Assembly (NCBI GenBank): GCA_964484305.1
Contig: CAZAEI010000002.1
Coordinates: 11,715 to 75,714, forward strand
DNA from: an uncultured archaeon
GTDB taxonomy: Archaea; Aenigmatarchaeota; Aenigmatarchaeia; QMZP01
Direction of reading: 5' to 3'
Length of the DNA: 64,000 bases
In this document: positions 6,208-53,250 of the stretch, piece by piece
How positions within the stretch are numbered: position 1 is the first letter of the stretch
Layout of the letters: each line of letters begins with the position of its first letter
Made by a program: the position numbers and the translations under genes
The notes under the pieces: model-generated
The model's database searches: none
Told to the model about the DNA's origin: nothing
Seen by the model: only the letters and a program-made list of their open reading frames with translations

Positions 6208-8034
6208 CTATTTCCTGTCTCCCTCTTTGCTGTTCTTTTTCACCCCAGTCTCGCCCCTAGACTTCCCCTTGGGGATGAGCCTCCTGACCTTCTCAAAGGC
6301 CTTCCTGCTTATCAGGCCCCTCATAAGGGAGTCCTCGAGTTGCGAGAGCAGGCTCGCCTGCCCGTCGCCAGAAGGCTTCTCGGGCCTGGGTTTGGTGGAG
6401 CCCTCTGGTAGGGGCTTTGCTTCTGGCTTCTGCTCGACCGGCTTCTCACCTGGCAGGGTCCCTGCCTTCTCAGGCTTCTCACCGGTAGGCGGTGCCTTGG
6501 AGGGCTGCGACTCAGGGGACTTGGCCTCACTTGTCTCATCAGGCCCCCCGCCCGCTGCAGGTGCTGACATGGGAGGCGCGGGTTCGCCGGCCCTGGCGGT
6601 CTCACCCGGAGAGGTTGCCTTTTCAGCCCACTCCCGGGGGCTCGGGGCGCCGGGGGTGGCCTCGGATATCTTATTGTCAATTTCCCTGAGCCTGCCCAGG
6701 TTTATCTGCTTGGTCTTCTGGTATTCCTTTTCGGGGAGGGCCCCTGCCTTGAACTGCTCGTCCAGCATGGCTATCAGTCCCTCGATTTCGGTCTTCTGGG
6801 ACCCGAGCCTCTGGACATCGGGGCTTGTCCCTGCCCCGGTCTTTATTGAGGCCAGCTCGGTCTCTGTGGTGTCCCTGAACAGCTCGAGGTCGCTCTTCTC
6901 GGCATACTTCTGCATCTTTATGTTGATATCGTCCAGGGATTTCATCATCTCCTGGGAGAGCTCGTCCAGGGTGTCCTGCTTGGCCTTGTATAGCACGAAC
7001 TCGTCCAGGCGCTTGTTGAGCTCCATGAATATGCCGTCTATCTTGTCGGCAATCCTGCTTATCCTCTTTTCCCTGTTCTCGATTTCAAGGAGCCTCTTGG
7101 CAGCCTCCTTGGAGAAGTTGACAATCTTCTCAAGGCTTCCCAGCCTCTTGAGGACATTCTCTATCTGGCCCAGCCTCTTGAGCATGAGCGAGGTCATCTC
7201 ATCCAGCTTGTCGATTCTGGCCCCGTGCACCTTTATTGAGGCGTCCTCCTCCCTCATGGCCTTGAGGAACCTCTGGGGCCTCATGTCTCCCAGGGACTCG
7301 TCAACCCCGGTCACCCTTATCTCGGACTCGCTGAGCCTCCTGTCCAGGCCGGACACGTTGGAGCGGATTTCCCCCACCTCCTCAGTGAGCCGCTGCATGC
7401 CCTCCCTTCCTGTGGAGCGCTCGTCCTTCATGGAGTCAAGGTAGGCCCGGACCTTTTCGAGCTGTACCTCGATCTTGTCCACCCTGGGCGCGACCTCTAT
7501 TCCCTGGGGCTTGATTTCCTTCAGTGTCTTGGTTAGTATATCCTTGATTTCATCCGCAGTGTACCTGAGGGTTCCGGGCTTTCCCCCTCTGGCAGCGCCC
7601 GGGGCCTTCTCGGGCTTCACCTCCCCGACCTCGCCGGCGATGTCTGTGAGGGGCTGGGGTATTCCTGCGTATTCCGTGGACTCGGCCTCTGGTGTTGTGA
7701 CTGGAGGGGCTGTCTCGGCAGAGGGTGCGGCAGGGGCTGTTGGAGGTGCTGATACAGCTGGGGCAGGCTCGGGTTCCTTGGCCCCCCGGGCCTTCCTAGG
7801 CTTCTCTGATTTCTTTGCGGGCTCTGGCTTCTCCTTCTCGGCCTTCTTGGCCTCGCTCTTCTCGAGCCTCTCTATCATTTTATTGAGCTCCTCGAGCTTC
7901 TTCTGGTTCTTGCCCTTCACCTCATTGTAGTGCTCCTCGGTTATGCTGGCCTCCCTGTAGGCCTCCTCGAGTGTGGAGAGCAGTATCTCGATATCCTCCT
8001 TGTGCTTCTGAAGTTCCGTAAGGGTTTCTTTCAT
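6208..8034 (-). CDS. 608-aa cytoplasmic coiled-coil protein with P/A/E/K-rich linkers and three SHOCT-like motifs. No signal peptide or TM is visible.
   Basis: SD GGAGGTG lies 5 nt upstream of ATG 8034. Heptad-like, charged sequence runs through the centre. The motifs are ASITEEHYNEVKGKNQKKLEEL, GALPEKEYQKTKQINLGRL and GLISRKAFEKVRRLI, which resemble the G-x-I-[ST]-x-x-E-[YF]-x-x-x-K consensus of SHOCT (PF09851). The antisense ORF 6134-7444 is a shadow ORF. Confidence 0.85.
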   Translation of the reverse strand: MKETLTELQKHKEDIEILLSTLEEAYREASITEEHYNEVKGKNQKKLEELNKMIERLEKSEAKKAEKEKPEPAKKSEKPRKARGAKEPEPAPAVSAPPTAPAAPSAETAPPVTTPEAESTEYAGIPQPLTDIAGEVGEVKPEKAPGAARGGKPGTLRYTADEIKDILTKTLKEIKPQGIEVAPRVDKIEVQLEKVRAYLDSMKDERSTGREGMQRLTEEVGEIRSNVSGLDRRLSESEIRVTGVDESLGDMRPQRFLKAMREEDASIKVHGARIDKLDEMTSLMLKRLGQIENVLKRLGSLEKIVNFSKEAAKRLLEIENREKRISRIADKIDGIFMELNKRLDEFVLYKAKQDTLDELSQEMMKSLDDINIKMQKYAEKSDLELFRDTTETELASIKTGAGTSPDVQRLGSQKTEIEGLIAMLDEQFKAGALPEKEYQKTKQINLGRLREIDNKISEATPGAPSPREWAEKATSPGETARAGEPAPPMSAPAAGGGPDETSEAKSPESQPSKAPPTGEKPEKAGTLPGEKPVEQKPEAKPLPEGSTKPRPEKPSGDGQASLLSQLEDSLMRGLISRKAFEKVRRLIPKGKSRGETGVKKNSKEGDRK

Positions 8035-8058
8035 ATCAACACCTCCATATCCTTTCTA

Positions 8059-8076
8059 TCAGTCCCTGAAGGGACT
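8059..8076 (-). promoter_or_regulatory. GC-rich hairpin CAGTCCC-TTCA-GGGACTG (minus-strand reading) in the about 100-nt junction between the giant gene and the coiled-coil gene.
   Basis: A perfect 7-bp inverted repeat is read directly. It lies 13 nt upstream of the SD GGAGGTG of the 8034 start. The stem core GTCCC...GGGAC matches the hairpin family at 53.1, 58.8 and 63.2 kb. Confidence 0.5.
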
Positions 8077-8134
8077 GCGTGCACTCCAGTGCAACAGCTC
8101 CTTAACTTCCTGTTATGCAGCTTTGTCATCTGCA

Positions 8135-11100
8135 TTAGCCTCCCAGCTTCCTTATCCTGTTCTTCACCGAATCTATGTAGGTCTTTGACATGGTGAACAT
8201 GGTCTGGCTTATCTTGTCCCTGGCCAGCTTGAGCTCGAACTCTATGTCCGTGGTATCGATGCCGCGGGCCTTTAGCTCCTTGGCCTTCTGCATCAGGGAC
8301 GTGACCTCGGTGTCGTACCTTATGTACTCGTCTATGTCCTTGTCGCTCAGCCTGCCTGTGTCGTGAAGGAGCGGCCTGAACTCTATGAAGTATGGCTTGC
8401 CGTGGTTGAATTCGGCGTTCTGGACCATGCCGGTCCCGGTCCTGAGCTTGGTCGTGGTCGAGGCATACTGGAAACCGTACTTCTGGGTGACCCTCCTGAT
8501 GTCGCCTGTGTACTTCGTCCTCATCTGCACCTCTGTGGATATGTTGGCCCTGATGGCCCCCTTGAAGTCCATGAGGACCTGGGATATCAGCCAGAGGCCG
8601 ATGCCCCACTTTCGGAACTCTCGGCAGCCCCTCTCCAGGGCCACGTAACCGCCCTTGCCACCGTACTTGGGCAGGAGGCGGTGGACCTCGTCATAGACTA
8701 TGAAGAGCTTTATCTTTGGAGATTCGGGCCAGGGTATCTTGAACATGTCAGCTATGGTCTTCCTGACAAAGATGTCGAGCTGCGCCGGCTCCATCTTGTC
8801 TATCAGGACGACCGTTATCTCTCCCGGGTTCATGTAGTTCCTGATATCGATAGCGGTGTTGGGGTCAGTGATTCTCGTTATCCTGCCCTTGTAGCGCCTG
8901 GCATCCCCGGGCTTGAGACCGAACCTGGGGTAGAGCTTCAGCATCCTCTGGTCCCTGCAGGGCCTGAGGAATCCCGTCCACTGGCAGGTCGGGTCAAAGA
9001 CAATGACGGGGATGTTCCTCTTGAGCATCTCCTCGACCACAATCATGGAGGAGACCGTCTTGCCCGCGCCCGTGGAGCCTGCGGAGATGCCGTGGGTCTG
9101 GAGCTGGGTCATGTCAAAGTAGGCAAGCATGTCGGTCTCCGCAACCTTGCCCACCACAAAGGCGTTCGGGCCTGCCTGGGGGAGCTTCTTGAAGTCCATG
9201 GGGAAGATGTACCTGGTCTTCTTCTTTTTCTTGAGCTTGATGTAGCGGTAGCCGTACCTGCCCCCATAGGCCGCGGGCACGACAAAGAAGAGGATTACAT
9301 AGGTCAGCCAGTTCCAGAATATCGCGCGGAGGGCCGCTATCACGGGCGGGAGCTCGGTCACGTCAAAGGCGTCGGCGGCGAAGGCGAACTTGTTCCCGTG
9401 CCAGTATGTCACGTTCGCCTCTATCACATACCTGTCATATGGGGTGTCCGAGGGTATGGTTATGTTCCTCCTAAAGGTAAGGCTCTGCTCCACTGCAACG
9501 GTCTCCTTGAATATCGTCATTATCTCGTCTGTGTTGAGGTTCTTGATGGTGTACTGGACAATGATGTCCTCTATGGTGGCTGTCTCTCCCATGTTGACGA
9601 GGGTGACCTCGTACCTGAACTCCTCGTTCGGGGCCACTGACTTGGTGAGGGACTTTACCTGGACGTCGAGGAGCGGGCTCGGTATCTTCTCCACCTTGAT
9701 GGTTACAGGGGTCCTGTGGGTTATGCCGAAGCCCTCCACATTGGTTATGATGTCCCCGGTGTAAACCCCGGGCTGGGTTGTCGGGAGGGTGTAGAGCTTT
9801 ATCTTGCTCACACCCACAGACCTGCCTGATATGGATATGCTCGGGCTCTCTATCTGGACCATGTCCCATATCAGGCCCTCGACAGTGAAGTTGGCTGTTA
9901 TGGAACCTGCGCGGTTGTTTATTATCTCCATGGAGTGTATCTCGTACTCGCCCTGGGAGAGGGTCACATAAATCAGGGTGGTCTTGACCTCGATTGGCCC
10001 GGAGACCGTGACGGCCTCTGCTGCGGCTCCGCCCCCACCCCCGCCTCCGCCCTCCTCGGGCTTCGGCACTTCGGGTATCACAATCGGGCAGTCGCCCGGG
10101 CATCCCGCATTGGACTCCCCCTTGGCTGACTCGCACACATCGTCGCCGCATATCCATTCGGCCAGGACAAATGCCCCGTTCAGGCTGCTCATGTTGGCTG
10201 CTATCGAATAGAATGTCGAGTTGACCGTGCTGGCAATGGCGACCCATGTTCCCTGGCAGCCCTCCATTGGAACCCAGTCGTCGCACTGGTATATGCCGAG
10301 GTTCTGGAGCATGAAGTCCGAGAGCTCGCACTCGCCCTCAATATAGCACTCCTCGCAATCAAGCTCCAGGCTCGCATAGCTGTAGTTCACGGGCTGCGTG
10401 TATATATAGTAGCCCTTGAGGGATTTCTGGGGCATCTTGACCCCCGGTATCTTGCCGAAGAGCACGGGGTTGTAGACATCATAGACCAGCTCTGAATCGT
10501 AGAGTATGACGGTCTCGTTCCTGAAGGTGATGTTGATGTCATAGGCCCTCATGTCAAGGGTCTCGTTGTAGTGCCCTGTCGCTCCCTCGGTGGTGAAGTT
10601 GTAGGCCTCGTATGATGTCCCTGCAAGCAGGAAGGTGAAGTTCAGGTGGAAGTGTGGCTTGTGGAGCTTCTCCATATTCACGGAGTCGCCTGACCACATC
10701 ACGCCCGGGAATATCTCAAAGCTCTTATCAGAATAGTTCCAGTTCCCGGAGAGGTCCCAGGCAGTGGCATTGACATGGTAGATGCCGACCTGGCTTGTGT
10801 AGTTCATGGCCACCACGAACCTGTAGAGGTCGCCGAGCTTCTCAACAAAGGTTGCGTTGAAGTCCATGGTGGAGTTGTCAGGGAATGTTACCTCCAGCTC
10901 TGCGCGCTCGACCCCGCCTGAATCGGTCGCGTTTATGTAGATATAGGCAGTGGAGTTTGCCGGGACCCTGGGCGGGACCTCGATTGCGACTTCCGGGGCA
11001 ACCCGGTCTATATAGATGACTGCCTTCATCTCGATGTCATGGAGCCATATCGAGGCATTCACATAGAGGGCACTCACATTGAGGTCATAGCCCTTGTTCT

Positions 11101-14100
11101 CGCTTATGTTGGGCGCAGAGAAGTTCAGGTGCCAGAGGCCTGTGTAGTTGGAGTAGTTGGCCGAGGTTATGTTCAGGTGCCAGCTCCCCGTGGCATTGAA
11201 GAGTGTGAGGTTGAACTCCACGCTGTGGTTCAGGGGCTCCCCTCCATAGGTCACGTTCACCTCAACCTGGATTGCGTCGCTGGCTGTGACGTTCTTTGTC
11301 GGCTCTGCCTGGGTGGGGTGGGTCAGGTCAAGGGAGAAGGGGAAGGCATTTACCGTCACCCAGGTCTCCTGGTAGGTGGGCTCGCCGGCAGAGAGGTTCT
11401 CGGTCCTTATCAGGCTCTGGTAGGTGGTGATGTCATCGATATGTGGGAGTGTGTAGTTGACCATTATCGTGTCAGAGCTTGCTATGTCCAGGTCGAGCTC
11501 GTCCTTGTCCAGGGGTATGTAGGGGGTGCCGTTCCCGGACTGGATGACCTCGAGAATGAGCCTTGCGTTGCCTGTATTATGGACAGTGATGTAGCCCATG
11601 TTGCCGCTCGTCTCATGGCTCAGGTTGATTGTGATGTCCTCGGGGTCGTGATACCAGGAAAGGTTTATGGGAACAGTCAGCACTATGAAGACCGTGTCGT
11701 TTGAGCCGCCCGCCTCAAGGGCCTCCACGGTGCCTGCATACTCACCTGCCTTGTACAGGGGCGGCACCGTTATGGTGATGTTCACCAGCTGGCCCTGGCC
11801 GGGCTCAAGAACAGAGATGTTCAGGGGATTGAAGCCCACGGTGAAGTTCTCGCACACCTCTCCCCAGATGCAGCTGTAGGTGATGTTGGTGGCGTTGACA
11901 TTGCCGATGCTGTAGATGTTCATGGTCTTGTTCCCTGTGCCCCCGCTCCTTACAAAGTAGGGCAGAGTGGACTCGAGTATGTCTATTGCGGGGTTCGGCT
12001 GGACCATGACCAGGATGGAGGTGAGGTTGGTTCCGTTGGTGTAGCCATTGAGCTCTGTCCAGTTCGCTGTCAGGTTCACGGTGTAGTTGCCTGGCCATGT
12101 TGATGTGGCCACTGTCACCCGGCTCTCGTTGGACTTGGTCTCGTGCTTGAGCATGTCACTGAAGTTGAAGGTATCCGGGGCGGCTGACCATGAGCCTGGG
12201 AGCCCCAGGGTGACGCTGAGGTTGAAGAGCCTTGCCCAGTCCGGCATGACAGTGAGGTTGAAGTCAAAGTCCTCTGAATCAGACAGGGTTATCCCTGTTA
12301 TGTTGACCTCGCTCACATTGGTTGTCATTATCAGGTGGGTGGTCCCTGCGCCATAGAGCTGTATCATTGACGTGCACCCGCTCAGGCCCGCAGTGTCATT
12401 GGCGCAGATGTAGAGGTCGTGGTAGCCCTCAAGGCTCGAGTTGTATGTGGCGTGGTAGAAGGGTTTTGCAGTGCCGTTCATCTGCTCTGTGTAGGCGCTG
12501 ACATCCAGGACAGAGTAGTTGAGCCTGGCGTCATAGGAGGCGTTGCCGTCCATGGTCATGTTTATGTGCTGGTAGCCCGGGAGGGTGAAGGAGGCGCCCC
12601 CTGCCACGGCGTCTATGGTGGCGCTCTGGCCACTGGGGATGGAGATGTTGTCAGCCACGAGGAGGCTGTTGACGGCCAGGTTGAGGCTTATCTCTGTTCC
12701 GTTGTTGTTCTCGATGGTAATGTTGAAGTAGAGCATGCTTGCGTCGTAGAGGCTGTTCACCTGCTCGGTGTAGTTGAACCCGGAATCGCTCGTGGCGCTG
12801 TGTATCATCTTTGATTCATTGATGTATCCACAGTCGGTGGGCCTCACCACCCTTATCCAGGCGTCACTGACCTCGAAGTTGTCGGTGATGTTTGCCGATA
12901 TGCTGACGTTCTCATATCCGGCCTCGAATACAAGGGGCGTGGCATTGACATCATCTATAAGGGGCGGGGTGTCGGTCACATTGAGCCAGAGGTCTGTTAT
13001 CCATTCCTGGGGGTCTGCTGTCTCGTTCCTGAGAATGAGCTTCACGTAGTACATGCCCTTGGGTTTGGCAACCGGGACAATATAGCTTATGGTGGTGTTC
13101 CGGCTGACCTGCTTGCCGAGTTCGAAGTACTCCGGGTCTGCCAGGACCATGTCAGAGCCGTTCTCGGTCCTGTAGACCTTTATGGCAATCCTTGAGTTGC
13201 CTATATTGGTTGTGGTTATGTTGCCTATCGCTGCCGAGGCGTTCAGGAGTGCGAGTATGGGGTTCTCATAGCTGGAGAGGCTCCCGGGGGTCCTTGTCCA
13301 GCTCGTGTTCTCGGGTACATTGACCGTGAGAATCATGTCATCGGGTTCGGTGTTGCTGGCCGAGGCCCTGACCACGGTCCAGTAATCCCCGGGGGGCTGG
13401 CCTGCGGGAATGTCTATGTAAAGGCTTGAGGAGAACTGGTAGCCCGCCTCAAGCCTGCCCCAGGCAGCGGGTATGATGTCGACCACGCACTCCGGGCATT
13501 CTGAACTGAGGTTGCCCCCGACCATGGTTATGTCTATGTCATCCACGGCATCATTTCCAGAGGAATAGACCGTGAAGTTGCCGACATAGTAGAGGGTACT
13601 CTCGTGCGGGACGGTGTTGGTCAGCTCATCCTCCACTATGTCCAGTATGGGGTTTGAGGACACGAAGACGTCGCTCCAGTTCAGGGTGGAGTTCAGGGTA
13701 AGGTCAGGGTCTGTCCAGTTTGCGTATATCATCACCCTTATGAGCATGGGCGGCGTGCCCGCAGGCACGTCCACTGTGAGGGGCCAGGTATAGGTCTCGT
13801 TGACAGAGAGGTTGCCTATATCCTGGTAGGTATCATTTATCACCAGGGTGTCATTGGGGTCGTCCATGCTTCTGAGTTCTACATAGTATCCCGTGGGCGG
13901 GCCGAGGTTGGTGAAGTTGACGCTCAGGTTGAACTGTGCCCCATGGGACTGGGTTATGCCTGACATAAGTATGGTCTTGTTGAGCTCTATCAGGCCTGTT
14001 ATCTTGCCCCAGACATCGAATGTGCCTGCATAGAGGCTGGCGTTGTTGTATTCAGGTCCGGTGTCCTGGGCCCATATCCATACATGGTAAAGACCGCTCA

Positions 14101-20100: not shown

Positions 20101-23100
20101 CATCCTCGAAATAGTAGTGGAAGGTGTGCTTGGCCCCCCAGCCGCCCCCTATCGGGTCTATGGTGTGGGGGTTTGTCCACCACCTTATGGACGGCACCTG
20201 GGTCAGGACAAAGGACTCGTTGTCCACCAGGGCGGATGAGCTGTTGTAGAAGTTCTTAGTGGCATAGAGGGTGGTGTTGTAGACGTTCAGGCAGGTGCCT
20301 GCCCAGTTTGAGGTGTTGTCAGGCCCCCAGAAGGTGCAGTTGTACCATCCACGGGTTCCTCCTGACTCGAACTCGTCCTCGATTCCGCCCCCGTCGTTGC
20401 CTGTATCGTCGCTGCACTCGAAATTGCATGCCGGGGATATCGCCTCAAAGGTTACGGTGGCGTTGTTGACCCCGCCAATCTCTCCGGCGCATTCGTCATA
20501 CACGCGGCCCCTTATGGTGATGTTGTCGAGGCTTCTCCTGTAGTGCTCCCCATCGGGTATGGTCAGGGTATAGTTAAGGGGGCTGGTCCATATGTTTACA
20601 GTGAAGTTGTCCGAGACATTCTCTGCATAGCAGCCCGGGTTGGAGGGGGTGCCCTCGATATAGCCCCTCCAGAGCTGGGGTCCTGTATCGTACTTGGGGC
20701 TGCAGCCCGGGTCGAACTCATAGGTTATGTAGCCCTGGGGATTTGACTGGTTGACGGGGCTGCTTATCCAGTTGCCTGTCATGTTTGTTATATTCACAAT
20801 TGACCTCTCGTTGGGTATGTTGGCGTACTGCTGCTTGACAAGGTCGTATATCCTAAGCTGCAGGGTAATGGTTCCGCTTGGCCTGTAAACCCATGAATCG
20901 TTGCCCTGAACGTATTCAATACTTGCGTCGTTCTTGGTCATGGTGTAGTTCCTGGGGCCGATCTCATCGGTGTCGTCAGGCCCTGGAGGGTCGTCTGTGG
21001 CATTGAACTTGAACTCCCTCACCCTGGTCAGGTTGTCGCCCAGGCCGTTGGCGCAGTCAAAGTTGTCTATTGTGAATGTAAGGGTGGTGTTGTCGCAGGG
21101 CTGGCACTCCTGGTAGGGGTCTTCCCCGTTGGGGGCTATCAGTGGGGACCCCCAGCTGGCATCCCCGTACTTCCTCTCATAGGCATACACCCTCACTGTG
21201 TCGCCATCCTCGTCCGAAACATTGACCGAGTAGTTGAAGGATTCCCCCCAACCCCCGCCTGCCGGGTCAACGCCGTAGCCTGCAAAGACCAGGACAGGGG
21301 CGGTCTCCACGCTGAAGGTGTGGTAGTCATAGCTGTGGTTTGTGTTGTAGTAGGTCCTGTTCGAGGCCATGGTGACGTCATACCATCCCGCCTTCATGCC
21401 GCTTGAGTTGAACTCGCAGCTGTACTGGCCGTCCCCGAGCGTCTGGGTATCGTTGCAGTAGTATTTGTCACCATAGAGCTCGCTCTCTATGATGAAGTAG
21501 ACACTTGCATCGCTCACGTTGCTGCCGCAGCTGTCCTGAATCGTGGCGTTGAGGGTTATGTTCACCCCCTTGTTGAACTGGGTGTAGTCAGGATAGGTTA
21601 TGTTGTTGAGCAACTCGTCCATGATTATCAGGGTCAGGTTGTGGCCGGTTGTGTTCATCTCGTAGTGGCTGTCTGTCACGTTGGCCCACCACTCCTGGGG
21701 CCCGATGGAGAAGGAGCAGTCCGGCTCGAAGAGGTAGTTGGCGTGGCCTGTCTGGTTGGTCTGGTTCAGGGTGACGTTAAGGGAGCTGTCGTTGTAGGTC
21801 ACCCAGAAGGTCACGTTGACTCCGGGCGGGAACCAGTTCTGGAGCGTGTAGTTGTCTGTGTCATTGACCAAGACCGTGAGGAGCTCTGTGTCGCCGGTCA
21901 TGTTGACCGTGGTCCCGTTGGGGGTGATGAAAGCTATGGAGGTGTTGGCCACCTCGAGTGTGGGCCCTGTGTAGTTCGTGGTGTTGAAGTAGTTTGAGGG
22001 CTCCCCGTTCTGGATGTAGAACATGTAGGTGTTCTCGCCGATGTCGTCCCCGGTGAAGTCCCGGAGCTCGACCCAGCAGGTCTGGCCCACCACGCCGCTT
22101 GGGTCGTGGAGGGTCATGTTGCCCCTGAAGACCCAGCCCTGGCCGTCGTACCTGTTTATGTACAGGGAACAGTTGACAGTATCAGAGTCCGGGTCTGTTA
22201 TGTTCACAGAGAAGTTGAAGGGCCTGGTCCAGCCGTCTGCCTGGGGGACGACCTGCTGCTGGGACCAGGTGGAGTTGAGGTTCTCGAGCTGGAACCAGTC
22301 CTGGAGGTGGGTCCTGTTGTCATTGAAATAGGCCCTGGAGGAGTTGAGCTGGATGGACCACCATCCCTCCCGGTGGTCTGTGGAATCCCAGGTGCAGTTG
22401 TAGTAGCCCTGGGTGGGGTCGGTCTCGTTCTCCACCGGGGTGCAGTCGTGCCAGATTCCATAGGGTGATATCACCTGTATGGTTATGTAGGAGTTGTTGA
22501 TTATGGCCTCGTCCGGCCTGTCCAGGGAGCAGTCCGAGGTGGTGTTGAGCCTTACCGGGACGGGGTCGGTGACATTGAAGGGCTCCTGGTAGGCGGGGAG
22601 GTCGATGTTATTGAGGAGCTGGCCGTAGACGTTGAATGCCTGTGATGTGGAGTTCTCAACATCATAGCACTGGTCATTCCAGACCCCACCTATCCACTGC
22701 TGGGCACCGAACTTGTAGAAGCAGTTCGGATTGAAGTAGAGGTTGAGGTAGCCCTGGCCGTTAGTGGTGTTCGTCCATTCTGTGTCGAAGTCGCTTCCTG
22801 TGGAGGTTATCCAGAATGTCCCGTTGACTCCCTGGGGGACAGGAACATTGCCGGCATCGGTATCGTTTATCAGAACCTGGAATAGCTCGACCCCTGGGCC
22901 GCCTGAGCCGTTCCTGTAGACATCCACGCCATATCCCTGTTTCTGGATAACGGTGACATTATCACTCTGGACCGTGAAGTTCTGGGGGCCGAGCTCCACG
23001 CCGTAGCCGTCCTCGTCTGTGGCATTTATCTTGAACTGGCTGTGCCATCCGCTGGGTGATATATCCCCGCAGTCAAAGGTTGTTATGGTGAATGTGGCAT

Positions 23101-26100
23101 CGTTCTGCCAGTTGGTCCCCTGGCATGAGTTGTAGTCAAGGAGCCCCCATTCATCATTGGGTGTGGCCCTCTTCCAGAGGGTGACATTCATGACATCGTT
23201 GTCAGCATCCTTGCACTGTGCAAAGAAACTGAAACCGCTCTGGTAGCCCCAGCCGTCCACGCTTGGGTCGACGATTGGATTGATATACTGAAGCTGTGGC
23301 CTGGTTCCCACGGTGAATGAATCGTTGGCGTAGAGCGTGACCATCTCATAGTACTGCTTCCAGGCCTGGGCAGTGGTGTTGTAGTTGGGTGGTGTCTGGG
23401 CTGTGTCCGAGGCGCTCCTGTTGTGCGTGTAGTGTCCGTCTCCCTCGTCATCTATGGTGGAGTTTGTTATGAAGTAGTTGGCAGGCCCGTCGAGGGTTAT
23501 GTTTTTTTCATTGGCCCCAGCCACAGGGTCAAGACACTCGTCAAAGAGGCTGAAGTTGAAGGTTATGTTTATCCCTGCTTCCTGGACATAGGGGGCGAGG
23601 TCTATGGGGGAGTGAATCGTTCCGTTGAGGAAGGTCCTGAGGGTTATGTTGAGCAGGCTGGAGTTCTCATCCTTGTATCTCTGGTTGTTGTGCACAAAGA
23701 CCCTCCATTTCTGGACCCCAATATCATATTCACAGTTCGATGTTGCGTCATCATCCCCGTCAGGGTGGAAGCTGTAGTTGAAGAACCCATAGTTTGTGTT
23801 CTTGGGCGGGTTGCCGGGGTCTGTCACGTTCTCCAGGTTGGCATGGTCCTTGGTTATGTAGACCGTGCCGTTGGCCTCGCCGCCCGCCAGCTCCTGGAAG
23901 TTATCATCCACGTTCTTTACCTTTGTCGAAAGCACGTAGTACGCAGAGCCGTTCCTCCAGAGCCAGGCACCGTCTCCGTCATATACCGTTATGTTTATGT
24001 CGTTCTTCTCCACGGTGTAGTTGAAGGGCCCGACCTCGTCAGAGTAGCTCACCCCCCCGCTCCTCGGGTAGTTGGCCTGGTCAGAGCAGTTTGCCTTGTA
24101 CTGCCATGTCCCGAGGTGGTACTCATAGCTGTAGACATAACTGTCATAGTAGTAAACCAGGCTGTTGTTGCAGCTGGAGCACCAGGACATGCCAATCTCT
24201 GTCCAGTCATCCCAGCCAGAGCCCGTCCACATCCTCCTGTAGAAGTATACATTGACGTTGTCGCCGTCAGGGTCAGTGACCCTGACTGACAGGTTGCGCG
24301 GTTCCATGTAGGAGCCATTGGCCCCCGTATCACCGTCATAGTCAGTGCTGTTCATTGTGGGCTCTGTCAGGACAGGCTCGCTCTCTACGAAGAATCCGGA
24401 TGTGCTCTCGGCATATTCATGGGTCTCGTTCACGTCATTGTAGTAGTCCTTGCCTGCGATAATCATTACAGTGTATTCCTGGGCCGGCAAGCCGGAGGTG
24501 TTCATGGAGCAGTTGTACCATCCCTGGCCCTCCTCGGACTTGTAGTCGCAGGTGAAGTTCTGTCCGGTGTCCTCATGGATTGCCGTTATGTTCAGCCGGC
24601 TGAGGTCAACACCTGTCACGTTCCTTCCGCAGGAGTATTCGGTTATATTGAACCTGAAGGTTACATTGGTTCCGTTAAGGTACTCGATGCCCAGGGGCTG
24701 CTCAACCTGAATGGCCAGCTCTTCATAGATATAGATGGTCAGGTTGTGGCCGGTTGTGTTCATCTCGTAGTGGCTGTCTGTCACGTTGGCCCACCACTCC
24801 TGGGGCCCGATGGAGAAGGAGCAGTCCGGCTCGAAGAGGTAGTTGGCGTGGCCTGTCTGGTTGGTCTGGTTCAGGGTGACGTTAAGGGAGCTGTCGTTGT
24901 AGGTCACCCAGAAGGTCACGTTGACTCCGGGCGGGAACCAGTTCTGGAGCGTGTAGTTGTCTGTGTCATTGACCAAGACCGTGAGGAGCTCTGTGTCGCC
25001 GGTCATGTTGACCGTGGTCCCGTTGGGGGTGATGAAAGCTATGGAGGTGTTGGCCACCTCGAGTGTGGGCCCTGTGTAGTTCGTGGTGTTGAAGTAGTTT
25101 GAGGGCTCCCCGTTCTGGATGTAGAACATGTAGGTGTTCTCGCCGATGTCGTCCCCGGTGAAGTCCCGGAGCTCGACCCAGCAGGTCTGGCCCACCACGC
25201 CGCTTGGGTCGTGGAGGGTCATGTTGCCCCTGAAGACCCAGCCCTGGCCGTCGTACCTGTTTATGTACAGGGAACAGTTGACAGTATCAGAGTCCGGGTC
25301 TGTTATGTTCACAGAGAAGTTGAAGGGCCTGGTCCAGCCGTCTGCCTGGGGGACGACCTGCTGCTGGGACCAGGTGGAGTTGAGGTTCTCGAGCTGGAAC
25401 CAGTCCTGGAGGTGGGTCCTGTTGTCATTGAAATAGGCCCTGGAGGAGTTGAGCTGGATGGACCACCATCCCTCCCGGTGGTCTGTGGAATCCCAGGTGC
25501 AGTTGTAGTAGCCCTGGGTGGGGTCGGTCTCGTTCTCCACCGGGGTGCAGTCGTGCCAGATTCCATAGGGTGATATCACCTGTATGGTTATGTAGGAGTT
25601 GTTGATTATGGCCTCGTCCGGCCTGTCCAGGGAGCAGTCCGAGGTGGTGTTGAGCCTTACCGGGACGGGGTCGGTGACATTGAAGGGCTCCTGGTAGGCG
25701 GGGAGGTCGATGTTATTGAGGAGCTGGCCGTAGACGTTGAAGGTCCTGTTCCCCGGCCAGAACATTTCACTGTCCGGGTTATAGCAGTCATCGTTCTCTA
25801 TCCTTGTACTGAATATGTGATAGCCGAACTTGTGGGAGCAGTTGGTGTCCAGATAGTAGTTGAGGTGGCCTGTATCATTGGTCTGATTATACAGGGGATT
25901 TCCCCAGTCCCATTCGTTTGATGTGACATAGACGGTTCCGTTCACGTCAGCTGGAAGGGCAAGGTTGCCCCTGTCGGTATCGTATACGTAGTAGCTTATG
26001 AGTATGGTATCTGTTCCCTGCCTGACCGTGTCTGTGTTGTTCTGGGTCCTTGCCTGATAGTTTACGCTGTCCTTCTGGACAGTGAAGGACTTTATGTCCG

Positions 26101-38100: not shown

Positions 38101-41100
38101 CGTCAAGCCTGAAGTTGACCTCCGCGTTGGAAACTCCCTGGCTACAGTCGTCGGTAAGGTTTCCCTTGAGCACTATGGGAACGGTCTCGCTCTCGGAGAA
38201 CTGCTGGAGCCCGGTTGGCTGGATGATGTCCGCGTATAGGTCCCCGTAAACGGCCACGTAGTGCTCGCTCGAGTTCTGGCTGGCGTAGCAGGTGTCGCTG
38301 GTCTGCATCTTCCATTTCTGGATTCCAACGTCATAGTCGCACTCGTCCCCGCCCGGGGGAAAGGTCTCGTTGAAGAAGCCGTCCGCATCGGTCGTTATGA
38401 GGCCGAGGTCCGAGTATGCGGAGCCGTCAGTCGTGACCCAGAGCCTGCCATACACGCCTGAAGGGACGTATTCGTTCGCGTCGGTGTCGTTGACCTTGGT
38501 AGACAGGGTTATGGTGTCTGCGGAGCGGTTTATCTCGGTGTCGTTGCCCGAGCCGCCGTACTCCACTATGACATCGTCTGCCTCCACGGTGAAGGAGCTC
38601 TCCTCGCTGTCTGTCTTGACGTCGATGTCAGATGCGTTGAACTTGAAGTTTACCGTGCCCTTGTAGGAGCAGCTGAAGTTTATGTCCGTCCAGTTCAGAA
38701 CGGTGTCGTTGCAGTCCTCGCAGTAAAGGTCCCCGTCGAGCTGCAGCCACTCCCCGCCTGTTCCCCCCGAGCTGCTGTGCCAGAGCTGGACAGTGACGTT
38801 GTCCAAGGGGTCGTCGGTGACGTTAACCGAGAAGTTGAATTTCCTGGACCAGCCCTCCGATGTCGGCACCACTGCGGGGTCTTCAAGGAGTGGGTATATG
38901 TAGAGGTAGAAGAAGCCTCCATTGCTCATGTTGGTCTTAACGGTCTCGTTCATGTAGTAGTAGTCCTTGGTCGCGTTCAGGGTGGCGTTGTACCACCCCT
39001 GCCTGTAGCCGGTTGTATCCAGGCCCTGGGGAGTCTCGGAGCACTTGTAGTAACCCGTCACGGGGCTCGTGACCGCGCTGCACTCGTCCTCGGTCAGGCC
39101 GCTCGCGTTGAACCTTACCGTGGCCCCGCCCAGCTCGGCCTGGCAGTCATCCCATATGGAGGCCTCGAACCTTATCCTGTCCCCCACGGTCTTGTTCTCC
39201 TCAAGGGGCCAGTCAAATGACACGTTGAAGTCTCCCATTACGGTGAGGTCGTACTCTGTAGAGGAGTTGTCTGCATAGCACCGGTATCCATCGGTCTCTG
39301 CCTTCCAGTTCTGCACGCCCACCTCGTACCTGGTCGGGGTGCATGAGGCATTGAAATCATAAACGGCATGGCCGGAGGAGTTGGTTGTGATGTTTATGCC
39401 GCTGTCATACTCGTAGCTGTTGGTCTCCACGTAGAATGTCACGTTGAAATCAAGCAGCTCGGTGCCGTTGCCGTCCCATATCCTCAGTATCAGGGTGTCT
39501 GTCTGGTCGCCTGACCTGTTGGCGGTTGAGTCGTCTCCCTGCTGGTATTCGAATACCACCGGGTCCTGGGTTATGGTGAAGTTCCTGTAGGAGCTGGGTG
39601 TGGTCGTGTTGGAATTCTGGTACTCGTCAGTGGCGTTGAACTTGTAGTACCAGAGCCCGATGTTGTCGCACGTGAACTGGGGGGTGAAGTTGAGGGTTTC
39701 CCAGTTTCCTGAGTTGTTGTAGTAGTCCTCGTCCATCAGTGTCCATGGGGCACCCACAGGGAAGGTTGACCTCCAGAGCTGCACGGTCACGTTGTCGTAC
39801 TCGTCATATACGTCCACGGAGAAGTTCCATTCATAACCCCAACCGCCGGACAGCATGGAAACGTTCTCGTTCTCGAGCAGGGGCGCATGGACCTGGGTGT
39901 TGACCTTCTGGACATCCGTAACGTTGTAGCTGTAGCACGTCTCTGTTGTTGAAACGTAGGCTATCCAGTCCTGTATCCCGGTGATGTAATAATCGTCAGG
40001 TAGGAAGTAGAACGTGGCATACCCCGTGGCGTTCGTCGTGTTCGTCCCGGCAGTCGTGTAGTCACCGCCCTCGCCGTTGGTGGTTACGTTGAACGTAACG
40101 GTTGATGCAGGCGAGAGGTCATATGTCTGCTTGTCGTTGTTATACAGCCTCACTATGAATTCGGCAGGAATCGAAAGGGATGAGTTGGTGTTGTTTCCGG
40201 AGATGTAGATTATGCTCACGTTATCCTTCTGTATCTGGAAGGTGTCGTCGTTGTTTACGTACTGCCCGGGGTTTATCGGGTCCGATATCTTCATGTTGCC
40301 CTCCTCGTCGGTGGCGTTGAACCTGAACTTCATCAGCTGCCCGGCATAACCGGAACAGGGATAGGTCACACCCGTCCAGTTCAGCTCGGTGTAGTTCAGT
40401 GCGCCATTGTCAGAGCAGTTTGTGCAGGACTGTGTTGAATAGTCCTGCCAGCCCTGTCCCACGACCTGGTACTGGAGCGTGACGTTGACAGTGTCCCCGA
40501 GGTTGTCTGATACGTTGACAGTGAAGTTGAAGTTGCCTGACCAGGGCCCGGACCTGGGGGTCACGTTTCCTGCCTTAAGTATCGGGGAGGTTGTCAGGTA
40601 GAAGATGTCCGGTGAGATGGTCGTGTTCTCGTAGTAGTAGGAGTAATTGGCCCACATGGTCACGTTGTAGTAGCCGTACTCTGCCTCCTGCCAGGGAAGC
40701 CAGTTGCACTTGTAGACGTTGGCTCCGATTCTGGATATTGGTGAACAGTAGTCGCCGTAGTCCGTGGTGTTGAGCATATAGCTTATCTGAGTGGAGGTGT
40801 TGACTGCCATGGGCTCTTCACAGTAGTTCTCTATGAAGCCCTGGAGGAGCACTATCTCGCCTATGGAGAAGTTCTGGGAGCCGTCAGGGAGGTCTATTGC
40901 GGGGTACAGGGAACCGTAGACGGTGAAGTTGTATGTGGAAGACTGCGTGGCTTTGTAGCAGGTGTTGCTGTCCTCCACCTTCACGTACCATTCGTGCAGC
41001 CCTACCTCGTACTCCTCGTTCTCTGTGGGCGTGGAGGCGTTGTCGCATTCCGGGAAGAAGTCGTACAGGACCTCGCCTGTGTCGTTTGCTGTTAGGAGAT

Positions 41101-44100
41101 GCCCGCTGTCCCAGGACGCCCCGCCACCTGTCCCTACCTTGGTGATGTACATGGTGGTGTTCGGCTGGGCATAGGAGCCGTTCTCGTCCATTATCCGGAC
41201 GTGCAGGGAGAGGTTGAGCAGGTCAGCGGAGCGGTTGGTCACGTTCTCGTGGCCCCAGATTACAAGGTAGGTGACGTCGTCCTCCTCTGTGGTGAACGAG
41301 CGCGCTGTGGTGGTGTTCTGGTTGCTCTCGTTATCGGTTATTATGAACCTGTACTGGGCAAGGCTTGATACGTTGCCGCAGTCGAGGGAGATAGTGAAGT
41401 TCTTGGTCTCCCAGTAAGAGCACTCCGTGCAGGTCTGGTTGTCCAGCTTGAACCAGCCAGAGCCTGTGTTGAGCTGGAGCTCCACGTCAACGGTGTCGCT
41501 CTCGGGGTCGTATACCGTCACGTTGAAGGTCCATCCCTCGCCCCAGCCCTGTGAAACCGAGGTGCTCTCCTCGCCCACGTAGCCATTGATGGTCTCGTTC
41601 TCGTACCTTGGCGGCCAGTTGAGCTCAATCTCAACCGTGAGGTTCTCGGTCTTGTTGTACCTGTAGCAGGCGTCATCGCTGCCTATGTAGCCGTACCAGG
41701 TCTGGTTCCCGTCGTAGAACTGGCCATCGGGGAGGAAGGTCACGTTTGCATGGCCTGAGGAGTTGGTCAGGGAGGAGTTTATCATGACCAGTGAAGAGCC
41801 TGCCCCGTTGGTTGTCACGTCGAACTTTACAAGGGGGGTCTCGTAGCCTGAGAATGTCCTGGAGAGGTTGTCGAGGTCGTAGACCTGCACGCCAAACTCT
41901 GTTGAGGTTGTCAGGCTCGTGTATGACTCGTTCCCGTAGACGTAGGTAACGTTTACGTCTGACTTCTCCGCCTGGAAGGTGTCGTCGTTGTCAACGTACT
42001 GCCCTGGGTTTATCGGGTCTGATATCTTCATGTTGCCCTCCTCATCCGTGGCGTTGAAGCGGAACTTCATGTAGGAGCCTGCATATCCAGAGCAAGGGAG
42101 GGTGAGGCTCCAGTTGAGCTGGGTGTAGTTGAGTGCGCCGTTGTCAGAGCAGTTAGTGCAGGACTGTGTGGTGTAGTCCTGCCAACCCTGGCCCACGACC
42201 TGGTACTGGAGCGTGACGTTGACAGTGTCTCCCTTGTTGTCGGACACGTTCACAGTGAAGTTGAACTCGGTTTCCCAGGAGGAGATTCTTGGGGTCACGT
42301 TGCCGGCCTTTAGTATTGGTGAGGTGGTGAGGTAGAAGATGTCCGGTGAGATGGTCGTGTTCTCGTAGTAGTAGGAGTAATTGGCCCACATGGTCACGTT
42401 GTAGTAGCCGTACTCTGCCTCCTGCCAGGGAAGCCAGTTGCACTTGTAGACGTTGGCTCCGATTCTGGATATTGGTGAACAGTAGTCGCCGTAGTCCGTG
42501 GTGTTGAGCATATAGCTTATCTGAGTGGAGGTGTTGACTGCCATGGGCTCTTCACAGTAGTTCTCTATGAAGCCCTGGAGGAGCACTATCTCGCCTATGG
42601 AGAAGTTCTGGGAGCCGTCAGGGAGGTCTATTGCGGGGTACAGGGAACCGTAGACGGTGAAGTTGTATGTGGAAGACTGCGTGGCTTTGTAGCAGGTGTT
42701 GCTGTCCTCCACCTTCACGTACCATTCGTGCAGCCCTACCTCGTACTCCTCGTTCTCTGTGGGCGTGGAGGCGTTGTCGCATTCCGGGAAGAAGTCGTAC
42801 AGGACCTCGCCTGTGTCGTTTGCTGTTAGGAGATGCCCGCTGTCCCAGGACGCCCCGCCACCTGTCCCTACCTTGGTGATGTACATGGTGGTGTTCGGCT
42901 GGGCATAGGAGCCGTTCTCGTCCATTATCCGGACGTGCAGGGAGAGGTTGAGCAGGTCAGCGGAGCGGTTGGTCACGTTCTCGTGGCCCCAGATTACAAG
43001 GTAGGTGACGTCGTCCTCCTCTGTGGTGAACGAGCGCGCTGTGGTGGTGTTCTGGTTGCTCTCGTTATCGGTTATTATGAACCTGTACTGGGCAAGGCTT
43101 GATACGTTGCCGCAGTCGAGGGAGATAGTGAAGTTCTTGGTCTCCCAGTAAGAGCACTCCGTGCAGGTCTGGTTGTCCAGCTTGAACCAGCCAGAGCCTG
43201 TGTTGAGCTGGAGCTCCACGTCAACGGTGTCGCTCTCGGGGTCGTATACCGTCACGTTGAAGGTCCATCCCTCGCCCCAGCCCTGTGAAACCGAGGTGCT
43301 CTCCTCGCCCACGTAGCCATTGATGGTCTCGTTCTCGTACCTTGGCGGCCAGTTGAGCTCAATCTCAACCGTGAGGTTCTCGGTCTTGTTGTACCTGTAG
43401 CAGGCGTCATCGCTGCCTATGTAGCCGTACCAGGTCTGGTTCCCGTCGTAGAACTGGCCATCGGGGAGGAAGGTCACGTTTGCATGGCCTGAGGAGTTGG
43501 TCAGGGAGGAGTTTATCATGACCAGTGAAGAGCCTGCCCCGTTGGTTGTCACGTCGAACTTTACAAGGGGGGTCTCGTAGCCTGAGAATGTCCTGGAGAG
43601 GTTGTCGAGGTCGTAGACCTGCACGCCGAACTCGGTTGGCTGGGTTGGCTGTGCCTTTGTCTCGTTGCCGTATATGTAGGTCACGTTGACGTCCGACTTC
43701 TGTAGCTCGAACGTGTCATCCTCGCCATAGTACTGGGTAACGCTGTCGGTGTATATCGTGTTCCCCTCGCTGTCGTAGGCCCTGAAGCGGAACTTCATCC
43801 ACTGGCCTGCATATCCGGAGCAGGGGTAGGTCTTGTTGAAATCAAATGTGGTGTAGCCCTCTGCGTTGTCAGAGCAGTTCGTGCAGTTGCGGGATTCCAC
43901 ATCGTACCAAGACTGGCCGAGTATCTGCTCTTGGAGGGTGACGTTGACCGTGTCATCGAGGTTGTCTGCAATCCTTACGCTGAAGTTGTGCTCCAGCGCC
44001 CAGGAGTCCTGCCTGGGGGTGGCGTTTGCCTCGGTAAGGGAAGGTGAGGTTGTCAGGTAGAATGTTTCAGGCGGCTGCTTTATCGTGAGGTTCTCGTAGT

Positions 44101-47100
44101 AGTTCGGATAGTCAGACCGCATGGAGACGTTGTAGTATCCGTAGGGTGTTTCCTGGTCGGGGTTCCAGTTGCACTTGTATACGTTCGCGCCGATGGGGTC
44201 TATTACCGTGCAGTTTGTATCGTAGCTCTCGTCCTGGTTTGACAGGTTGAACGTAACCTGGGTGGTGGTGTTCAGGGTTATGGGCTCCCCGCAGTAGTTC
44301 TGTGTGTAGCCTTGGATTAGTATCGTATCCGCCGCGGTGTAGTTCTCTGAGCCGTCAGGAAGGTCGATGAAGTTCTGCAGGGTTCCCGTGACGTTGAAGT
44401 TCCATGTGCTTGACTGGTCATCCTCGCACAGGTCCGGGTCTTCCTCGGTCGTGACTATCACGTACCAGTCGTGCGCCCCAACCTCGTACTCCTCATTCAC
44501 GAGGGGTGTGGAGGCATTGTCGCAGTCGGGGAAGAAGCTGTAGTTGATGTAGCCAGAGGCGTTAGTTGTCAGCGTGCGGCCGCTGTCCCATGTAGCCCCT
44601 GTCCCGGAACCCACCTTCGTGATGTACAGCTTGACATCCTTTCCTGCCCCTACCGTGCCGCCGATGTTCATCCTTATCCAGACCTCGGTCCAGTTGATTT
44701 CATCGATGTTTCCATCGTCGTAGTAATCGAAATCTATTCCCCTTATCCTGATGTCGCTGTTCGCGGGGGTTTCCCATGCCGCCAGGACGGTTGAATCGGT
44801 TGTCCATGCGGTGGCGTTTCCGGTTCCGCTCACTGAGAAATTGACGCTGCCGTCAATCCAGTCGGAGCCGTTCCAGAACTGGACCTGCAAATCGGGGTCG
44901 TTGTTTCCCTCTGCCGTGGAGCCCGTGTCGTTGTAATCAGAAACGTTCACTATAACCGAGATGTTGTATGTCTGGGATGGCAGCTCCGGGATGACATCGC
45001 TGTAGGTCGTCCAGCCCGTTACACCTTCATCGTCTATAAGGGGTGTATAGGCCAGTACATGAATCAGGTCTATGCCAAGGGTGTCGGTGTCTGCGTCGCT
45101 ATCCTGGTCCGTGTCCATGAAGGTGACGTTCAGCTCGCCGCCGCTTATCAGGGCCGTCACGTCCAGCGTCATGTTGGTTTCAGAGGAGGTTATGTTGCCA
45201 ACCTCGGTTGAGTAGGCATAGACGGTGAAGTTCTCCTCGGTGGCTGCTGAAGAGTTGGCTGAGACGTTCAGGTAGTAATATTCATAGCCGGCTGCTATGT
45301 CATCTATGATGTAGGTCACGTTCAGTACGGAACTGCCGGCCCCGGACGACTCAATCGAGAAGGTATACCCGTTGGCTTCGTTGATTTCCAGGGTGAATGT
45401 CTTGGTTCCGGTGGTGTTTGGGGGGTTAATAAACGTTTCCTCAACGCATGCAAAGGCAGCAGCCCCATCATTGGCAGGACCGCAGTAATTATTGAACCTT
45501 GACGTGCCTGAGGGCAGCCCGCTAAAGATTACATAGCCGTCCTTGAACGCGCAGTGCAGGACAAGCTCGTTGTCGGTGGTTGTGGTGACCGAGGGCGCGT
45601 CAATGGAGACACGTGTTCCTGTAAGCAGGTTGGTCGCGAACTGGCCCCAATCGCCTACGTTCTCGTAAAGCAGGATTATCCCGAGCTGTTCTTCTGAGCC
45701 TGTCCAGGACCATGTATAGGTCTTGGAGCCGGCGTTATCCTCGTCGTCCTGGGAAACAGCCTTAGTGTAAATCCATACTGCAGGGGCGGAAGAAGCCACT
45801 GTCCCGTCTATTGGCATTGAGCCCGATTCCTCCAATGTCCAGGTTTCGGTGCTCGGGGGGGTTATAGTTAAAGCCGGGGTGTTGTCATCAGTTGCCACAA
45901 TAGCTACCATGAGGTCTCCCACCAAGGCAGAGGCAGGAACGGTAATGACTACATCGTTTCCAGCAGAATTTTCATCAAACCCGTCAGACTCAGAATCCTT
46001 GTATGCCGGGACGGCCCCGCCTGATGTGGTCTCGTTAATCACCCTGAAGCTCTTGTCATAGGTCTGGGTGTCGGTGTAGTCGCCTGAAACAGAAACCCCG
46101 GATATTATGTCTTCGTCACCGGAGGAATCCATGGTGTAGTATGTGCTGCTTTCCTGCGCCGCCTTCTTCTGTATCTCTCCGGATTCCTGGTCTTCTGTTT
46201 CATTGTAGGTTGTTGCGTATCTTACAAGAACCTCCAGCGTCAGGTTTTCCGCGTCGGCGCTCCTGTTCGTGTTCACATTGTGGCCGGAGGCGACCTCGAA
46301 CTCGTAATCAAGGTCTACGTCGCAGGGCAGGCTCAGCGGAACATCAATCTCGGTTTTCCTGTCAAGAGCAACCGGGACTGAATAAACGTTGTAAGGATAC
46401 TTTGTTACAGTCAGCCTGAAGGGGGAATACGTGACGTTTCCCGTGTAATTGTATTCGGCGTATGTGACTGCCTGCTGGGTTATTGTCCCGTCTGCTGACG
46501 TGTTTATCTCAAAGATGGTGTTTCCAGAAGTGTCGTTCAGCTGGACTGTCGCATTTTCAATGGGAGCTCCCTCTGAATCCGAGACCGTCACGTCCAGCGT
46601 GTACTTCCTGAATAGCGTGCCGTTGTCCGCCTTCCAGTTGAAGTCCCAGGTATCGGACTGGATATTTATGAGCGAGCCGTTGCCTGACCCTGCGGAGAAG
46701 CCGTAGCCGTCTTTGTTGTTGACCTTCTTGTCGCTAGTTTCATTTACGACCGAGTCATTCACTATGAAGTCAACGTACGATGTGTATGTGGCGCAGTCGT
46801 CGCTCACGGTGAAGACATCGGTTACGTAGTTTTCTCCATTGGAGTAGTTTATCTGGATGGCCTGCATGTAATCGTATATGTTGCTGAGCGTCCTGTTATC
46901 GGTGACCGTTATGTTGCCGCCGTAGAAATACACGGGCCTCACGGTAGTGCTTGAATAAGCAGAGTCGAATGTGACAAGTCCTGTTTCATAATCAACACTA
47001 TAATTGGCCTTTGGTATAAGACTTGAAGGGATAAACCTCGTGGCACTCCAGCCTGTCACGTCAAGCATCTGGAGGTGCTCTGATTGCGTAACCGGGTAAT

Positions 47101-53134: not shown

Positions 53135-53250
53135 TCACCTTCCGTCCCTTCGGGACGGCATGCACTCATTCACCTTCCGTCCCTTCGGGACGGCATGTAC
53201 TCATTCACCTTCCGTCTGGTTTCATCCTGTTAATGACGGCATGTAATCAT
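53135..53250 (-). repeat. Three tandem hairpin plus SD units (35, 35 and 46 nt) filling the junction between thiolase and DUF35.
   Basis: The minus-strand units read (ATGAGTRC)ATGCCGTCCC-GAA-GGGACGGAAGGTGA. The third unit keeps both flanks but has a longer loop (CCGTC-attaacaggatgaaacca-GACGG). Confidence 0.85.

Follow-up and report, generated by a model that had tools for sequence, protein, structure and literature searches.

Two exact copies of a 1.3-kb segment inside a giant archaeal gene: old tandem units probably homogenised by gene conversion

The window analysed here, a stretch of 64,000 nucleotides (nt) from a contig of an uncultured archaeon of the Aenigmatarchaeota, contains a giant open reading frame (ORF) in which a segment of 1,298 nt occurs twice without a difference. 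This segment, here termed block R, belongs to an array of units of about 578 amino acids (aa). With a probability of about 0.7, the array is explained by an old tandem duplication that was later homogenised by gene conversion between neighbouring units. In this model, a 1,734-bp segment would have been duplicated in tandem long ago to give the array, after which the spacer copies would have diverged to a synonymous divergence (dS) of ~0.75. Later, about 1.3 kb would have been made identical again through non-reciprocal homologous recombination (gene conversion) between units, and the same conversion process would still be acting in related lineages, where it would also alter the number of units. 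We infer RadA-dependent conversion as the recombination mechanism. The process is a known one, the concerted evolution of surface-protein repeats, and the gene provides a new example of it in an unusual archaeal setting.

Block R within the array of 578-aa units

The giant ORF occupies window positions 8135-48502 on the minus strand and, as read from the window sequence, consists of 13,455 codons. The two copies of block R, also on the minus strand, were located at 42330-43627 (the gene-upstream copy, aa 1626-2058) and at 40596-41893 (the gene-downstream copy, aa 2204-2636). Zero differences were found over the 1,298 nt, and the neighbouring base differs on both sides, so the match is maximal. 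The copies are offset by 1,734 nt, or 578 codons, and both are in frame in the giant ORF; the base-for-base identity at a period of 3 x 578 nt reported in an earlier note on this DNA is therefore correct for the window as deposited. A chance origin of an exact match of 1.3 kb is impossible. Tandem Repeats Finder gave no report for the array because the period exceeds 500.

Three alignable units were recognised, U1 (aa 1286-1866), U2 (aa 1867-2444) and U3 (aa 2445-3022). With the heads, middles and tails of the units written as h, m and t, the layout of the array is h1 m1 [t h] m2 [t h] m3 t3, in which each bracketed part is a copy of block R. The gene-upstream copy comprises the tail of U1 and the head of U2, and the gene-downstream copy the tail of U2 and the head of U3. 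U2 is a hybrid, its head being equal to the head of U3 and its tail to the tail of U1. An AlphaFold model of one 578-aa unit was all-beta, with about five beta-sandwich domains and a mean predicted local distance difference test score (pLDDT) of 80. The Foldseek neighbours of this model were arrays of macroglobulin/immunoglobulin-like domains and the extender region of a large adhesin (PDB 6xi3).

The copies of block R are separated by the spacer m2 (41894-42329, minus strand, aa 2059-2203), 436 nt of unique sequence equivalent to domain 3 of U2 and the initial strands of its domain 4. The spacer was compared pairwise with its paralogue in U3, m3 (40160-40595, minus strand). Over the first 117 codons (~350 nt) the two were 82% identical at the nt level, with a dS of 0.75 and a non-synonymous divergence (dN) of 0.11, and over the last 28 codons (84 nt) identity fell to 57% with codon indels, giving about 80-100 substitutions plus indels across the 436 nt. 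The edges of block R were sharp, with ~15% divergence beginning a few bases outside the block and background identity reached within 100-400 nt on both sides. The description of the adjoining sequence as clearly homologous but diverged is thus upheld.

At the gene-upstream side, the head and middle of U1 (43628-44647, minus strand, aa 1286-1625) had 55-60% aa identity to their counterparts in U2 and U3. At the other end of the array, the U3 tail (39437-40159, minus strand) has diverged to ~37-38% aa identity to the tail within block R. The third diverged unit that had been placed at about 38.9-40.6 kb was accordingly confirmed in part: the spacer homologue at 40160-40595 is well conserved, but only the strongly diverged tail follows it, and the better-conserved further unit lies on the opposite side, at 43628-44647.

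A single duplication or an unequal crossover gives identity over the full 1,734 nt. Because only 1,298 nt are identical and the flanks are old, block R is not explained by one fresh duplication. The earlier note had offered very recent duplication or ongoing gene conversion as causes. Conversion fits a block that is shorter than the period, has sharp edges and lies beside flanks with a dS of ~0.75, and it also fits the homogenisation within genomes and divergence between species described below; very recent duplication as the sole cause was not supported.

Homogenised modules in related genomes and at block S

The first 3,745 codons of an orthologous giant gene were found on a Joint Genome Institute (JGI) contig of a related species (L066; 60-75% aa identity). 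The L066 array has a period of 1,728 nt (576 codons) and contains an exact repeat of 1,604 nt (L066 positions 7007-8610 and 8735-10338), together with a further unit that is 60-98% identical in a mosaic pattern. The heads of U1 are positional orthologues between the window and L066 (63-66% versus 50-57%), and the segment comprising the head and middle of U1 in the window is the positional orthologue of unit 1 of L066. U2-type heads, in turn, are 100% identical inside each species and 71-72% identical between the two. The tails of U1 and U2, identical in the window, are only 73% identical in L066. As judged from these alignments, the R array was duplicated or homogenised separately in both lineages, with a change in unit number from one to the other (four units in L066 versus three in the window). 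The in-frame expansion and contraction that had been anticipated from the period was therefore found as a change over evolutionary time; length variation of the array in the population is possible.

All three units of the window found their best match in a single unit of G015, a more distant relative. In a further homologue, P0001, adjacent units matched at 75-100% over 40-aa windows; no assembler could create such partial homogenisation. Two homologue searches returned only distant proteins of Aenigmarchaeota type, without near-identical fragments. At the protein level, the R region is closest to P0003, an orthologue of U1 with 63-80% identity that was deposited as 'Gammaproteobacteria bacterium'; its 2-kb contig is almost certainly mis-binned and of DPANN archaeal origin.

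A whole-window k-mer scan revealed a second exact repeat in the same gene, block S, in which 1,005 nt at 21632-22636 are identical to 24737-25741, in frame and at an offset of 3,105 nt (1,035 codons), with 2.1 kb between the copies. The gene-upstream copy (24737-25741, minus strand) encodes aa 7601-7935 and constitutes one three-domain module, and the gene-downstream copy (21632-22636, minus strand) encodes aa 8636-8970. Exact in-frame repeats were also found in the 13,519-codon frame of a genome of the same genus (G002; 729 nt, offset 3,072) and in a genome of another genus (G016; 1,013 nt, offset 3,093). Both sit at the position of block S, which in the window and in G016 is separated from the C terminus by ~5,855 aa.

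In an alignment of six sequences, block S was 100% identical within each of the three species (the window, G002 and G016), and 52-72% identical in aa and 68-75% in nt between them. Outside the block, positional orthologues were 40-59% identical, versus 11-45% for paralogues. The edges of block S in the window and in G016 differ by no more than 1 column at the upstream end and 10 columns at the downstream end, and they fall at module boundaries. In a further genome, G004, the block S orthologue was 63% identical and its neighbours 35-41%; the pair is not homogenised there. Because the copies are identical within genomes while their flanks group by position, block S represents, on the evidence of this alignment, concerted evolution in the strict sense, and a purely artefactual origin of such blocks is untenable. 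Clear positional orthologues on either side distinguish block S from block R.

An exact in-frame repeat was also present in the 13,314-codon giant gene of a member of another family (G032; 1,091 nt, offset 6,234, contig C2 25572-26662 and 31806-32896), at a position that differs from those of both R and S.

The metagenome-assembled genome (MAG) from which the window is taken comprises 1.19 Mb in 58 contigs, and 6.6% of it is occupied by two giant open frames of about 13,455-13,462 and 12,864 codons. The only exact direct repeats of at least 300 nt in the MAG were R, S, a pair of 788 nt and a pair of 306 nt, the last of which lies inside the second giant frame (12,864 codons, contig C1). All 11 of the intra-contig exact direct repeats of at least 130 nt had an offset divisible by 3. 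The 788-nt pair (C1 113003-113790 and 114068-114855) belongs to two tandem paralogous genes, with frames of 309 and 344 aa, whose C-terminal parts are identical; it is a case of homogenisation between genes and not within one.

The giant protein was also compared with that of the congener G002 (contig C2 17212-57768). The last ~6,000 aa of the giant protein are colinear with G002 at 50-88% identity, which is highest in the ATPase tail (85-88% over the C-terminal 455 aa). The first ~7,500 aa are not colinear: aa 1-1250 gave no hits, and beyond them only scrambled module matches of 24-43% were obtained. Turnover in the distal half of the fibre is very rapid, and block R sits in this hypervariable part. 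The recombination of units could even be a selected variation system in the presumed host-contact part of the fibre, reshuffling domain versions such as patch A/B (described below) and the spacer domain and changing its length, although we regard this as doubtful. If it were true, selection would be favouring two identical modules, or a standing substrate for recombination, and this would explain why the S pair is kept identical between the same edges in two genera.

Assembly of block R and competing explanations

Independent assemblies of the same population were found through exact matches to neighbouring proteins; all of them are probably short-read de Bruijn assemblies. A 47.8-kb JGI contig (L004, from 3300031654) was colinear with window positions 38457-59710 over 21,254 nt with 0 gaps, and it reproduced the two-copy layout. 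The two sequences differed at 89 positions, of which 44 fell in 41328-41633, the same 44 recurred at +1,734, and 1 was elsewhere. The L004 copies of block R are identical to each other, and both carry version B of a 306-nt patch for which the window carries version A. The window and L004 agree at 992 of the 1,298 positions of block R. In this sense the 'zero divergence' of the earlier note is not secure, as the same layout was recovered with another version of the patch in both copies.

The patch lies at 43062-43367 in the upstream copy and at 41328-41633 in the downstream copy (both minus strand), is in frame, starts 260 nt from the gene-upstream edge of the block and corresponds roughly to domain 5 of the unit. 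Its 44 substitutions changed 16 codons synonymously and 16 non-synonymously, with 26 of the 44 at third codon positions. The resulting dS of 0.42 and dN of 0.10 resemble old coding divergence and are similar to the values for the spacer; the background divergence among these assemblies is only 0.005-0.04%. The two variable stretches of the array, patch A versus B and m2 versus m3, belong to one domain type (domains 5 and 3, respectively) with the motif GWG..NF.V.V.D...D.V.V.L, and they have an equal dN of ~0.10; the homogenised parts are the remaining domains.

Other assemblies did not pass through the block. A Logan contig (L006/L035, k = 31) stops 30 nt into block R and a JGI contig of a third sample (L034) 122 nt into it; the block is therefore preceded by two different sequences in those read sets. 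Among the contigs retrieved with further anchor genes, one breaks at the edge of block R, and L004 alone crosses the block. By arithmetic, the L004 record ends at window position 24737, exactly the edge of a copy of block S. Because contigs end at the edge and the patch variants are duplicated at +1,734, block R is a collapsed node in assembly graphs; the second copy is not thereby false, and the copy number of block R is at least 2, since the two assemblies that cross the repeat both take the minimal path with two copies. The warning that short-read assemblies may mis-estimate copy number at such a place was thus well founded. No predicted partial proteins of k = 31 unitigs (block, spacer and two patch bubbles) were on record, although genes called on contigs this short may be missing from the index.

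A break of a similar kind was seen outside the array. Contigs from five different Logan runs (L006/L035, L007, L031, L032 and L036) all end at window 53193-53198, in a spacer with a hairpin repeat, which likewise breaks k = 31 graphs.

In SPAdes-type assemblers, bubble popping followed by a double walk of a collapsed repeat gives (A,A) or (B,B), and never (A,B). On balance, it is probable that one real copy of block R carries patch A and the other patch B, and that de Bruijn assemblers collapse the two, pop the bubble and walk one path twice. The perfect identity in the window would then be, probably, in part a product of the assembler. At the remaining 992 positions two independent collapses gave the same sequence, so that few if any additional differences should be hidden there. 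For MAGs in general, exact kilobase repeats assembled from short reads represent minimal graph walks, and until long reads confirm them, the lengths of giant genes, their unit counts and their 'perfect' identities are lower bounds or consensus artefacts.

The best-surviving alternative is that the identity is truly perfect in every cell, with (A,A) and (B,B) being two real strains in which conversion is fast enough to spread any change to the other copy within the lifetime of a strain. The copies are indeed identical to each other in both assemblies, the homogenisation of block S has been kept over long times in three species, and strain-level single-nucleotide polymorphisms (SNPs) exist between samples (1-7 per 10-20 kb). 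This alternative requires, however, that a 306-bp replacement diverged by 14% became fixed in both copies while the other 20 kb came to differ by one SNP, and the simplest source of a second patch version is the other copy, as in the case of collapsed paralogues. We consider it unlikely, though distinctly more credible than the explanations that follow.

That the window and L004 could represent two real strains, each homogenised, is one of several points that weigh against our interpretation of an old array homogenised by conversion, with one patch version in each copy. The assemblies compared, being short-read de Bruijn, probably share the same blind spots, and the identity of block R, the phase of the patch, the depth over the block and the number of units are those that assemblies imply. 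When versions A and B were polarised against the nearest relative, P0003 was A-like at 5 sites, B-like at 2 and neither at 9. Moreover, for block R the pattern across species fits repeated conversion and independent recent duplications in each lineage alike.

A plain, very recent tandem duplication, without gene conversion and with the spacer differences arising later, would account for units that are tandem and in frame, and the 1,604 of 1,728 nt that are exact in L066 could be a fresh duplication in that species. Duplication followed by neutral divergence cannot, however, give 0 differences in 1,298 nt beside the roughly 80-100 substitutions plus indels in the 436 nt of the spacer, and the mismatch spectrum showed no sign of targeted mutagenesis. 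This explanation is improbable. An assembly chimera, in which a single real unit was supplemented by a second copy and spacer from another strain or by a mis-join, appears slightly less probable still. Repeats longer than the reads are a classic site of such errors, and the contigs of other assemblies break at the edge of the block, but the spacer is joined to a block end and a block start in two independent gap-free assemblies, the ORF is open across 13,455 codons, and the related species represented by L066 has the same tandem architecture and period. Finally, the writing of unit differences by a diversity-generating retroelement or another targeted mutator was ruled out, because the spacer and patch mismatches hit all four bases about equally and without adenine bias (12/13/11/8 for A/C/G/T in one version of the patch), more than half of the patch changes fall at third codon positions, and codon indels are present.

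The giant protein and comparison with known systems

The giant protein begins with a signal-peptide-like N terminus (MKEKYLLILIFLLLYLPVTVKA/D), which is followed by ~12,000 aa of beta-sandwich modules. At its C-terminal end are a hydrophobic transmembrane (TM) segment, a KKKKK cluster and a P-loop domain with the Walker A motif GSTGAGKT. This tail was assigned by Pfam to DUF87/HerA (E 4e-6) and is predicted to be cytoplasmic. Pfam matches between the two ends were few (CarboxypepD_reg, NPCBM_assoc and Big_7). The product is predicted to be a membrane-anchored surface protein of a DPANN-type archaeon; the genes next to the giant gene point to an archaeon, and the homologues carry the names Aenigmarchaeota or other DPANN in their sources.

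Giant SPEARE proteins have been described in Nanohaloarchaeota, with similar sequences in Aenigmarchaeota, and are named for their serine protease, laminin-G/adhesion and type III restriction-enzyme-like domains (PMC6642349). Like them, the protein encoded in the window is giant and mostly extracytoplasmic, has a TM segment near the C terminus, and is best conserved in a cytoplasmic NTPase-type tail (PMC6642349). Unlike SPEARE, its tail scores as DUF87/HerA, and exact intragenic repeats are not a subject of the paper on SPEARE (PMC6642349). No serine protease, laminin-G or restriction-enzyme domain was found in whole-protein Pfam scans at E <= 0.01; a remote-homology comparison (of the HHpred type) was not run.

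The array also resembles repeat-bearing bacterial surface adhesins of variable copy number, such as alpha C/Rib, SasG/Aap and the immunoglobulin-like extender regions of giant RTX adhesins, which are likewise strings of beta-sandwich domains in a surface fibre with repeat identity at the DNA level. Those adhesins have tens of identical single-domain repeats, whereas the R array has two or three partly homogenised units of 578 aa and five domains. The host differs as well, being archaeal and not bacterial; the anchor consists of a TM segment with an ATPase tail, and the difference in copy number was seen between species only.

Concerted evolution of duplicates by gene conversion is well known from tufA/tufB of enterobacteria and from rRNA operons. 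As in those systems, the copies described here are identical within a genome and diverged between species, in tracts of ~1 kb with sharp edges and older flanks that form self-sustaining islands. Unlike them, the copies are modules inside one archaeal gene, present as direct repeats 1.7-3.1 kb apart; because they are direct repeats within one gene, the same recombination can add or remove units in frame. Block S offers a clear case, from archaea, of a conversion island whose copies have stayed identical within each genome in more than one genus. More broadly, the two blocks illustrate the evolution of the largest genes in genome-reduced DPANN archaea: modules are duplicated, neighbours overwrite them, and modules are gained or lost, chiefly in the distal half.

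The probable real start of the giant gene is the ATG at 48460, which is the start used by Prodigal-type gene calls in three other assemblies. The JGI gene call on L004 begins at L004 position 11482, 231 nt downstream of this ATG, and the deposited lengths differ by 77 aa for the same DNA. The genes adjoining the giant gene encode a thiolase, an HMG-CoA synthase and a DUF35-type protein.

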